From Candidatus Micrarchaeaceae archaeon (GTDB lineage: Archaea > Micrarchaeota > Micrarchaeia > Micrarchaeales > CABMGC01): a stretch of DNA of 29,827 nucleotides. Position 1 is the stretch's first letter, and each line of letters opens with the position of its first letter. The stretch is from assembly GCA_038882355.1 (NCBI GenBank), contig JAVZOJ010000001.1:1-29827 (forward strand), in the 5' to 3' direction. Below, one piece after another: positions 7,310 through 9,953 of this stretch. Position numbers and translations under genes: made by a program. Below the pieces are notes generated by a model that worked only from the letters and a program-made list of their open reading frames with translations, was not told the DNA's origin and did not search any database.

Positions 7310-7962
7310 GCTCTCTCTATTTCTTTTGCAGAAATTTCGTTGCGCATGACAGCGCTTGCTCCAGCCTCGAGAAGCTCCTTTTCCGAAAACAATGATTCTA
7401 CCCCTATCGCCTTGATTCCAAGCTCTTTCGCTCCTATTATCATATACTTAGAGCCTGAAACAAGCTTGAATTCGTCAACATTTGAAATCTCTTTGCATCT
7501 TTCCTCTGCTTTTTTTATTATCTCTGCTGCATTATCTCCTTCATTTCCCCAGCCGCCGGTATAAAGCCTGCTCGATAGCCCAACCTTTTCTAATTTAAAT
7601 TTCGCAACCCTTTCAGGCTCCCACGTTGCGATTCCTACAAACGTTCCTGATTTGGCAAGCTTTTCTATTGAATCTCTCCCGCCTTTTATTTCTACCAGCT
7701 TGTCATGACCCGCTAGGTTGTAGTAAGAATAGTACATTTCTTCTGCGCAGTCACTTATCTTCCTATTTATTTCCCCTTCTTCTACGCCTTCTTTCAGGAG
7801 TATTTCCCTTATCGCCTGCCTTGCAGGTACACCGATATACTCGTTTACAGGCAGGCTTACTTCTATTCCATATATGTTCCTTATGGCCTCTTTTATATAA
7901 TCAGATACCTCTTTCTTCTCCTTCACCAACGTATGGCCTACGTCAAAGAGTATACATTGCAA
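7306..7962 (-). CDS. HAD-superfamily (phosphoglycolate phosphatase-like) protein with degenerate catalytic motifs
   Basis: Motif I ILFDVGHTL, motif II IATW, C-terminal GAKELGIKAIGV...SEKELLEAGA. Start reassigned to TTG 7962 (GGTG upstream); the longer ORF to 8064 overlaps the tRNA. Confidence 0.8.
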   Translation of the reverse strand: MQCILFDVGHTLVKEKKEVSDYIKEAIRNIYGIEVSLPVNEYIGVPARQAIREILLKEGVEEGEINRKISDCAEEMYYSYYNLAGHDKLVEIKGGRDSIEKLAKSGTFVGIATWEPERVAKFKLEKVGLSSRLYTGGWGNEGDNAAEIIKKAEERCKEISNVDEFKLVSGSKYMIIGAKELGIKAIGVESLFSEKELLEAGASAVMRNEISAKEIERA

Positions 7963-7984
7963 AGAGACACCAAGATTTTTTATT

Positions 7985-8000
7985 AAAGAAAGTATATAAA
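7985..8000 (+). promoter_or_regulatory. BRE-TATA promoter of tRNA-Gly
   Basis: AAAGAAAG followed by TATATAAA (7993-8000), 25-32 nt upstream of the tRNA 5' end. Confidence 0.6.
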
Positions 8001-8024
8001 TAATGTTATAAATATCTTTTATAC

Positions 8025-8098
8025 GCGAGTGTAGTCTAGCCTGGTAAGGACTTTGGCCTTCCAAGCCAAAGACCCGGGTTCAAATCCCGGCACTCGCA
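8025..8098 (+). tRNA. tRNA-Gly (anticodon TCC), intronless, CCA not encoded
   Basis: Acceptor stem GCGAGTG/CACTCGC plus discriminator A; D arm TAGTCTAGCCTGGTAAGGAC; anticodon arm TTGGC-CTTCCAA-GCCAA; T arm CCGGG-TTCAAAT-CCCGG. Confidence 0.97.
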
Positions 8099-8136
8099 TC
8101 CACGACATGGCTTCTTCCAGAAAAATTCAAACTTGG

Positions 8137-8272
8137 CAGACTGGGCAACTTAGCCCTTTGAGCAATATGCGTTTTGCTGCCGAGAGCAAGTGACAAAAAA
8201 CTTGCTCTCATTATGCGGCAGAGCCATGATGTTGAAGAGAGTCTCAAAACCTAAGGGCAGAAGCAAGGTCTG
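8137..8272 (+). ncRNA. Candidate structured ncRNA (nested rod-like hairpin) of unknown class
   Basis: Nested helices: 8137-8142/8267-8272, 8153-8158/8253-8258, 8159-8162/8243-8246, 8163-8168/8229-8234, 8177-8182/8216-8221, 8183-8191/8200-8208. Two G-U pairs favour the + strand. Confidence 0.5.
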
Positions 8273-8318
8273 AATAGTTACTTTCACATAAATAAAATTG
8301 CTTTATGATAAAGATCGC

Positions 8319-8339
8319 CGCAGATGGCAAAACCCTGCG
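8319..8339 (-). terminator. Possible hairpin downstream of the DUF460 gene
   Basis: CGCAG/CTGCG stem with inner GG/CC, 7 nt past the stop codon, followed on the minus strand by U-rich sequence. Confidence 0.3.
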
Positions 8340-8346
8340 AAATTAT

Positions 8347-8844
8347 TCACAAATACATTCTGCTCCCTCTTGGGGCTCTCCTCACGTTTATGTTCCTTAT
8401 TGCTTCGCTTATTGAACTTCTCATTATGATCCTCGCTTTGACCTCATCAACATCTGCGCCGAATTCTTTTGCAATCCTCTCTGCTTGGTTAAGCTTGTTT
8501 GTATAGTAGTTATAAGCAACCATAGCTCCAGAAAGGGCATCCCTCTCATGAACAGTGAGCTTTGCGCTAATCTTCTTCTCGATTTCCCTTTTCTTGCTTA
8601 CGCGTATGTCCTCTCTGGGCTCAAACAGAACAGACTGAAATACAGAGGCAAGCCTCACGATGGTTTCTTCGGCCCTGGCCTTGTCTGTAGCGATGATAGA
8701 AGGCCTTCCTGCGCTTTTAATCTCTTTTACAAACCATTCAAAATTAGCGAACCTCTGCTCTGAAGCAGAGACAAACCTGCCTGAGAGATCTATGCATGCG
8801 ATGGCGCTTACCTTTCCCAGGTCTACTCCCACTATTACATGCAG
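8347..8844 (-). CDS. Short DUF460-domain protein (RNase H-like fold N-terminus)
   Basis: VIVGVDLGKVSAIACIDLSG, GRPSIIATDK, LTVHERDALSGAMVAY resemble the DUF460 consensus. The first beta strand needs an upstream start; the only candidate before the in-frame stop is CTG at 8844 (GGGGT upstream). The track start is GTG 8832. Confidence 0.75.
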   Translation of the reverse strand: MHVIVGVDLGKVSAIACIDLSGRFVSASEQRFANFEWFVKEIKSAGRPSIIATDKARAEETIVRLASVFQSVLFEPREDIRVSKKREIEKKISAKLTVHERDALSGAMVAYNYYTNKLNQAERIAKEFGADVDEVKARIIMRSSISEAIRNINVRRAPRGSRMYL

Positions 8845-8909
8845 GCAATTACCCCGTTATTCCATTTTCGGCAACGCCACAGTCAACCCATGGCTCAGGC
8901 CTCGCGTTC

Positions 8910-9953
8910 TTAAGTGTTTGGGCATACGCTCGAGTTTGCGAAGCAGGTAGCATTATACGCACCATTTGGCAAAGACAAGTATCTGCAGTCTGTAATCACC
9001 TCTATCGGTGCAGAGATGTTGTAATAGCTTGCAAGGAGGGATTGGGCAGAGAGCGGCTGTGACGCGTTATACAGGCATGAACTGAGCTCCTTCGTATTTA
9101 AATACTTGTTTGCATAAGAGGAAAGAAGGTATGGAGATATGAATCCTGAAAGGTTGCTTAAAGAATTTACAAATGAATGAAACGATGAAGAGTTTTGAAG
9201 AGAAGCGCAGAATAGATATTCGCTTAGAGCAAGGGAGTTATTAAGCCCATAAGTGCTTGCAATATTTTGCGAATAATACCCAAATACAAGTTTAAGCGAA
9301 GGATTTACTTTTACGCCAAGCTTTTTGGTTTCATTGAACAGGTAGGACAAGCTTCTCAAGGATCCTGGAGCGTATGGATCTATGAACCAGTATTGCTGTA
9401 CAGGGTATGCTACGGAACATGCAGGCTTGTTAGCCAGAACAATAATGCCATTGGCAGATACATAGTTTTCGAGTATTTTTGAAGGAGAGGCTGCTTCTTC
9501 ATATGCATTCTCAACGTTTCCAGTGCTGCTATTGACTACAACTAAAAAGGTGAAGGAGCTGTTGCTGTATCTTACAGGCATTTCTATAATCCAAGCATTT
9601 GCTGTGGGTACAAAGTATTCGCTTGCAGAAGAAGTCCTAGAGTAAAATGGAAGTATTGAAAGAGAAGTATTTGTGTAAATGTAGCTTGCAATAAGCCTTT
9701 CTGCCTGGAGAAGTGCATATGAAGCATTATACTTTGGCACAATGCAAGAGCCCGAATAGAAGTATCTGCATGTGGCATTTGGCGAAGAGTTTGAAGCGGT
9801 AATGATGACTGGCTTTGAAGAAGACACTTCAAGGATTATTCCTATCAGTATTGCGACAAGCACCAATAAAGAAACGTGGAGATAGTCTAGCCCGCCTAAT
9901 CTTCCTACTGGCCTAATAATCAACTTTCCTTCTTTAGACACAGCTTTAGACAC
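8910..9953 (-). CDS. Membrane-anchored, glycosylated surface protein with PepSY-like and degenerate DsbA/thioredoxin-like regions
   Basis: N-terminal TM (VSLLVLVAILIGIIL), about 14 N-x-S/T sequons, 8 Cys, LVVVNSSTGNV (PepSY-like) and WFIDPYAPGS (FxDxxCPxC-like without Cys). Domain calls are by resemblance only. Confidence 0.6.
   Translation of the reverse strand: MSKAVSKEGKLIIRPVGRLGGLDYLHVSLLVLVAILIGIILEVSSSKPVIITASNSSPNATCRYFYSGSCIVPKYNASYALLQAERLIASYIYTNTSLSILPFYSRTSSASEYFVPTANAWIIEMPVRYSNSSFTFLVVVNSSTGNVENAYEEAASPSKILENYVSANGIIVLANKPACSVAYPVQQYWFIDPYAPGSLRSLSYLFNETKKLGVKVNPSLKLVFGYYSQNIASTYGLNNSLALSEYLFCASLQNSSSFHSFVNSLSNLSGFISPYLLSSYANKYLNTKELSSCLYNASQPLSAQSLLASYYNISAPIEVITDCRYLSLPNGAYNATCFANSSVCPNT

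Follow-up and report, generated by a model that had tools for sequence, protein, structure and literature searches.

What is the long hairpin that lies directly behind a tRNA-Gly gene in a Candidatus Micrarchaeaceae archaeon: a transcribed RNA, the scar of an insertion, or a signal that ends transcription? The analysed window, a stretch of 29,827 nucleotides, is contig C1 of a host assembly (GCA_038882355.1) of 549,520 bp in 57 contigs that is 88.7% complete by marker estimate. With 0.55 Mb, compared with about 0.8 Mb for its relatives, the genome probably falls short of this estimate; the assembly holds no 16S rRNA gene, no fibrillarin gene and only 22 tRNA genes. The 3' end of tRNA-Gly(UCC) and the convergent 3' end of a DUF460 gene enclose 248 nt in which no open reading frame (ORF) of at least 60 aa was found, in line with the ORF-free gap described in a first-pass annotation, which placed a nested-hairpin RNA there and offered a co-transcribed non-coding RNA, a box H/ACA guide or a MITE-like remnant as its identity. 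The coordinates of the features are collected in the table below.

Table. Features of the tRNA-Gly/DUF460 region, with positions in the window
Feature	Position	Strand	Evidence
TATA-like box (TATATAAATAA) with a BRE-like purine-rich run 5' of it	7993-8003	+	sequence reading; archaeal promoter consensus
tRNA-Gly(UCC) gene, without encoded CCA in register	8025-8098	+	ARAGORN; Rfam tRNA 72.1 bits
Trailer/spacer, without a T run of 4 or more	8099-8136	+	sequence
Extended rod (conformation B): basal helices, GGGC/GCCC side hairpin, long upper arm	8104-8270	+	MFE in trailer context
Hairpin as first delimited (conformation A)	8137-8276	+	MFE -57.3 kcal/mol, z -5.59
Mini-hairpin GGGC / AACUUA / GCCC	8143-8156	+	pair probability 0.94-0.95, full context
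Robust core: upper arm of ~32 bp, interrupted by 1-nt bulges and mismatches and by a 5-nt bulge (8210-8214), with five G-U pairs	8157-8237	+	
Perfect 10-bp apical stem with 8-nt A-rich loop (GACAAAAA)	8182-8209	+	100% complementary inverted repeat I4; probability 1.0
T-rich run TTTTATTTA, also TATA-like AT-rich	8289-8300	-	sequence reading
DUF460 gene, 161 aa	8347-8832	-	Pfam PF04312, E 6e-23

A HAD-type hydrolase gene is divergent from tRNA-Gly, and about 70 nt separate the hairpin from the stop of the DUF460 gene. DUF460 homologs in Micrarchaeia measure 157-164 aa, so the gene is full length for its lineage, and the idea that the hairpin is a C-terminal remnant of DUF460 is rejected on the same ground. 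An assembly artefact is unlikely, as the palindrome is imperfect and sits mid-contig in 29.8 kb. The DUF460 gene directly follows a gene of about 350 aa that has no Pfam match, and the two form a pair (window 8347-9953, minus strand); this pair is conserved in Micrarchaeia, and its surroundings vary among the loci inspected (L038-L042).

The hairpin is real, exceptionally stable and strand-biased. As first delimited, it folds in RNAfold with a minimum free energy (MFE) of -57.3 kcal/mol, against -35.4 +/- 3.9 kcal/mol for dinucleotide shuffles (z -5.59), and none of 200 shuffles matches its energy. The MFE fold reproduces the nested helices drawn in the first-pass annotation, and the comparison with dinucleotide shuffles suggested there comes out clearly on the side of the structure. 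Folding of the minus strand yields -44.7 kcal/mol (z -3.2), which leaves the plus strand better by 12.6 kcal/mol. When every 140-nt window of the genome was folded on both strands (36,154 windows) and the energies were regressed on GC content, the exactly framed hairpin ranked second, 4.5 standard deviations below expectation. The sole better window after this correction is 23S rRNA, and only three windows have a lower raw energy. Other strongly folded windows without long ORFs or an Rfam match occur at C9:7350-7549 (-; L048), which holds two long hairpins next to each other, C19:7650-7849 (-; L045), C24:9270-9461 (+; L044) and C50:2910-3109 (+; L047).

The solid part of the hairpin is a core of 81 nt (8157-8237), which folds at -37.8 kcal/mol (z -7.3; 0 of 300 shuffles equal) with pair probabilities of at least 0.95. 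At its tip, the perfect stem reported earlier is present as 10 bp (8182-8191 with 8200-8209) around a loop of 8 nt. The stems contain five to six G-U pairs, which favour the tRNA strand as had been remarked, and no A-C opposition. A DNA palindrome that decays by transitions should yield G-U pairs and A-C oppositions equally; the one-sided chance of the observed split under such decay is about 1/32 to 1/64. Because the split is unequal, it points, if modestly, to selection on the plus-strand RNA.

The base of the hairpin is ambiguous, and the sole unambiguous part is the upper arm. Folding of the complete trailer (8099-8300) gives conformation B at -64.1 kcal/mol with the upper arm unchanged, while enforcing the basal helices of the first-pass annotation in the same segment costs 2.7 kcal/mol (-61.4). 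Of the nested helices originally drawn, those of the upper arm are thus solid and the basal ones lose in trailer context. As conformation B prevails over the earlier base by this amount, the modelled rod probably spans 8104-8270 and starts 5 nt past tRNA-Gly; on its own, this segment folds at -61.4 kcal/mol (z -4.8; 0 of 200 shuffles equal). Its base pairs 8138-8142 with 8240-8244 and 8104-8118 with 8256-8270 and includes the GGGC/GCCC mini-hairpin, with pair probabilities of about 0.95; those of the helix 8104-8118/8256-8270, which corresponds to inverted repeat I2, range from 0.68 to 0.96. The mini-hairpin and the GCCCU/AGGGC helix drawn earlier are mutually exclusive. The alternative pairing of GGGC (8143-8146) with GCCC (8153-8156), from which a possible switch had been suggested, is therefore genuine as a thermodynamic alternative.

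A third, weaker pairing exists as well: 8106-8112 is perfectly complementary over 7 nt to 8222-8228 in the 3' arm of the core, within a 21-nt inverted repeat of 76% complementarity that runs into the tRNA's final 7 nt. The boldest reading of these competing structures would make the rod a micrarchaeial regulatory RNA of a new, tRNA-linked type. The tRNA would supply its promoter and its handle for processing, and the two basal folds (-64.1 and -61.4 kcal/mol) and the pairing of 8106-8112 with 8222-8228 would form a switch that couples tRNA-Gly 3' processing to release or activity of the RNA. This reading is improbable.

The hairpin shares its strand with tRNA-Gly and begins 5 nt (conformation B) or 38 nt (conformation A) past the tRNA end, the latter in agreement with the spacing given when it was first drawn. 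The TATA-like box TATATAAATAA, centred about 28 nt 5' of the start of tRNA-Gly, is the putative promoter of this transcription unit, and no convincing promoter of the hairpin's own was found. No run of four or more T occurs in 8099-8171 of the plus strand. The first T4 run (8172-8175) lies in the 5' arm of the hairpin, where it could stop part of the transcription. Since a terminator scan from the tRNA end (8098) to 8315 returned nothing terminator-like, nothing separates the tRNA from the hairpin. The genome encodes RNase Z (TIGR02651, 321 bits, above the curated cut-off; contig C14:192-1067). In two public sequencing runs, only 0.04 of the sampled words of 7900-8500 were present, and the locus is in neither.

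Structure of this kind is not a general property of tRNA trailers in the genome. The 20 other foldable trailers have z values from +1.9 to -3.4 and none is comparable to the hairpin behind tRNA-Gly, so a generic trailer or terminator feature is rejected. Two of these trailers, at z -2.0 and -3.1, belong to convergent tRNA genes, each folding the antisense of the other.

Nor does the hairpin belong to a known RNA family. An Rfam scan, as had been proposed for it, found nothing at the locus except the tRNA, both at gathering thresholds and at permissive ones (E up to 10), in accordance with the earlier remark that hallmarks of 5S rRNA, SRP RNA and RNase P are lacking. Identity with any of these three RNAs is rejected in addition by their presence on contigs C5 and C23. 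The SRP RNA (C5:2381-2660, minus strand; L005) matches the full archaeal Rfam model with 75.9 bits versus a gathering threshold of 96.5 and, on this ground, reads as divergent or reduced; the 5S rRNA gene lies about 2 kb from it on the same strand.

The hairpin is not a guide RNA. The suggestion that it could be an H/ACA guide, carried on the tRNA transcript, drew on a likeness to archaeal box H/ACA sRNAs, with a basal stem, an internal loop, an upper stem and an AUA at about the right distance. The 10/8-nt internal loop is indeed there, and the triplet at 8274-8276 starts after 15 intervening nt, within the usual spacing of the ACA box (about 14-16), but it reads ATA/AUA and not ACA, and the strands of the supposed pocket are paired elsewhere in the full-context fold. 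The geometry fits superficially, and in the favoured conformation the pocket is not an open loop. The upper arm, at about 100 nt, also departs from that of box H/ACA sRNAs. The rule for archaeal H/ACA RNAs is a K-turn or K-loop that sits above the pocket at a distance of 5-6 nt (PMC7991803). Inspection of the sequence by eye finds no tandem G-A pairs of this kind: the 5' strand offers UUU-GA (8157-8161), the opposite strand has UA (8252-8253) where GA is needed, and the apical loop has no G-A/A-G closure. The K-turn, described at first as not clear, is thus absent. A search of the kind proposed with the guide suggestion, over 23S rRNA, 5S rRNA and the 22 assembled tRNAs (16S being absent from the assembly), gave a best target of 3+4 bp, which 130 of 500 shuffled guides equalled.

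A C/D guide fares no better. L7Ae is present, fibrillarin occurs in 59 of 60 family relatives, absent as it is from the host's own incomplete assembly, and the hairpin contains a C-box-like AUGAUGU (8226-8232) and a CUGA (8270-8273), but the UGAUG motif is buried inside a regular helix. A scan of 7900-8400 for the pattern of boxes C, D', C' and D with up to four mismatches found nothing, while the same pattern recovered two textbook sRNAs elsewhere in the genome, and on these positive controls a C/D sRNA is rejected. These two, at C38:2209-2257 (+; no mismatch) and C36:1231-1285 (+; one mismatch), have 12-nt guides. Taken over both classes, a guide role is very improbable indeed.

The proteins themselves weigh against the H/ACA reading. 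Nop10 and Gar1 were not found in the host genome, and Cbf5, the H/ACA pseudouridine synthase, searched as Pfam TruB_N, is found in none of 61 genomes of the host's family (f1). A class-wide sample gave the same result for the two families of the order (0 of 16 in f1 and 0 of 25 in f3), while the same search detected TruB_N in 107 genomes, every one of them in another family of the class; control genomes were positive in 14 of 14 cases. Cbf5 was found in nearly all other families of the class, while about 100 genomes from this order, many of them more than 90% complete, yielded none. To judge from these genomes, this order of Micrarchaeia appears to have lost Cbf5, and a search of the literature found no paper on such a loss. 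With the proteins and the K-turn missing and no convincing target in 23S rRNA, 5S rRNA or the 22 tRNAs, the H/ACA guide is rejected.

Two explanations that assign no free RNA to the hairpin have to be weighed against a transcribed one. It could be a palindrome, neutral or DNA-level, that an insertion or inverted duplication left beside a tRNA gene, MITE-like or as an integration scar, with no selected RNA function. This is possible but doubtful. The 3' ends of tRNAs are common insertion sites, a structure known from one genome can be a neutral palindrome, and the distribution fits: BLAST found no homolog in 60 relatives, a single-sequence covariance model, which has low power for diverged copies, matched none of 117 family and 150 class genomes (267 relatives), and the stretches that follow the orthologous tRNA-Gly genes of 28 relatives, gathered as the first-pass annotation had envisaged, are unrelated to the hairpin and in many cases coding. 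Among 5.8 billion proteins, none is closer to the neighbouring DUF460 protein than a homolog of 50% identity. The hairpin is absent from the loci of DUF460 homologs examined, which have different neighbours, and a peptide scan of metagenome contigs retrieved no homolog locus. By these searches, the hairpin is an orphan, lineage-restricted and present in a single copy. It is this single copy that speaks against a mobile element. BLAST, short-word BLAST and the covariance model each count one copy in the genome, with no partial copy longer than chance, and the many dispersed copies that would have favoured a MITE were not found, although an 88.7%-complete assembly of 57 contigs could have missed others. 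A search for a second tRNA 3' end, with up to three mismatches, was negative, the best local alignment of that end to the hairpin, direct or inverted, is equalled by 37-253 of 300 shuffles, and direct repeats of at least 8 nt do not flank it. BLAST against phage and plasmid collections gave no match, and apical-stem pattern scans of metagenome, genome and viral contigs gave only chance matches to the 10-bp stem. The covariance model extended none of the metagenome or viral stem matches, those in genome contigs fell mostly in Clostridia and never in archaea, and one match with a similar loop (L091) was discarded as lying inside a coding ORF with unrelated flanks. The MITE-like remnant is thus left unsupported, and a neutral origin would, in addition, have to accommodate the unexpected excess of G-U pairs over A-C oppositions.

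Alternatively, the hairpin could act purely in cis as a terminator or insulator between convergent units, which stops read-through from tRNA-Gly into DUF460 antisense and the reverse, or protects 3' ends, without any role for a free RNA. Its position, with the 3' end of a convergent gene on either side, would suit such a function, as would the folding of both strands (z -5.6 for plus, -3.2 for minus) and the T runs of the minus strand (T6 at 8195-8200, T5 at 8121-8125 and T4+T3 at 8290-8297). The run TTTTATTTA, which includes the last of these, is likely the oligo-T terminator of the convergent DUF460 gene as its sequence reads; as a TATA-like AT-rich stretch, it also leaves minus-strand transcription possible. 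Intrinsic termination in archaea, however, depends on oligo-T tracts and is not known to require a hairpin, and the plus strand has no T run behind the hairpin. A rod of 167 nt far exceeds the size of a terminator hairpin; we know of none that approaches it. The other strongly folded intergenic regions of the genome, moreover, show no common pattern at convergent junctions. A purely cis-acting device is therefore unlikely, and more so than a neutral palindrome.

The best explanation, held tentatively and at somewhat less than an even chance, is a lineage-specific structured trailer RNA, transcribed with tRNA-Gly, cut loose by RNase Z as a stable molecule of about 170 nt, and under selection for its fold. 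Transcription would start at the tRNA promoter and, without an oligo-T stop behind the tRNA, would continue through 8099-8276. Cleavage by RNase Z after the discriminator base (8098) would then release the RNA, which would fold as a rod in which 8157-8237 is the long arm, 8143-8156 the side hairpin, and the start of the trailer pairs with 8256-8270 as the basal helix. Selection would act on the fold as such, which would render the trailer resistant to exonucleases and keep the tRNA unit apart from the convergent DUF460 gene. The rod may work in cis, as an insulator where the two units converge, or as a trans-acting RNA. For this locus, we infer co-transcription, release by RNase Z, stability in vivo and any function. 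The reduced genomes of DPANN archaea, to which the Micrarchaeia belong, leave scant space for idle DNA.

Comparable arrangements are known from other genomes. Small RNAs of archaea and plants are expressed as tRNA-sRNA dicistrons and freed by tRNA processing (PMC7994747; PMC3491384). In archaea, such dicistrons sit directly downstream of tRNA-Val, tRNA-Ser and tRNA-Pro, and in the tRNA-snoRNA genes of plants, processing is carried out by RNase Z (PMC7994747). The candidate trailer RNA resembles these genes as a small structured RNA that follows its tRNA immediately and on the same strand, with no recognisable terminator between the two, no convincing promoter of the downstream RNA and RNase Z in the genome. 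It differs from them as a near-continuous rod, two to three times longer, that is neither a C/D nor an H/ACA guide, has no known protein partner or target and is a predicted partner in co-transcription.

The clearest positive result is a side finding, the apparent loss of the H/ACA pseudouridylation machinery in an order that has kept C/D box methylation. The trailer RNA is a candidate from one genome, and its value lies in the target that it sets for metatranscriptomics. Should its transcription and stability be borne out, Micrarchaeia would have their first demonstrated case of a structured RNA other than a guide that is carried by a tRNA gene.
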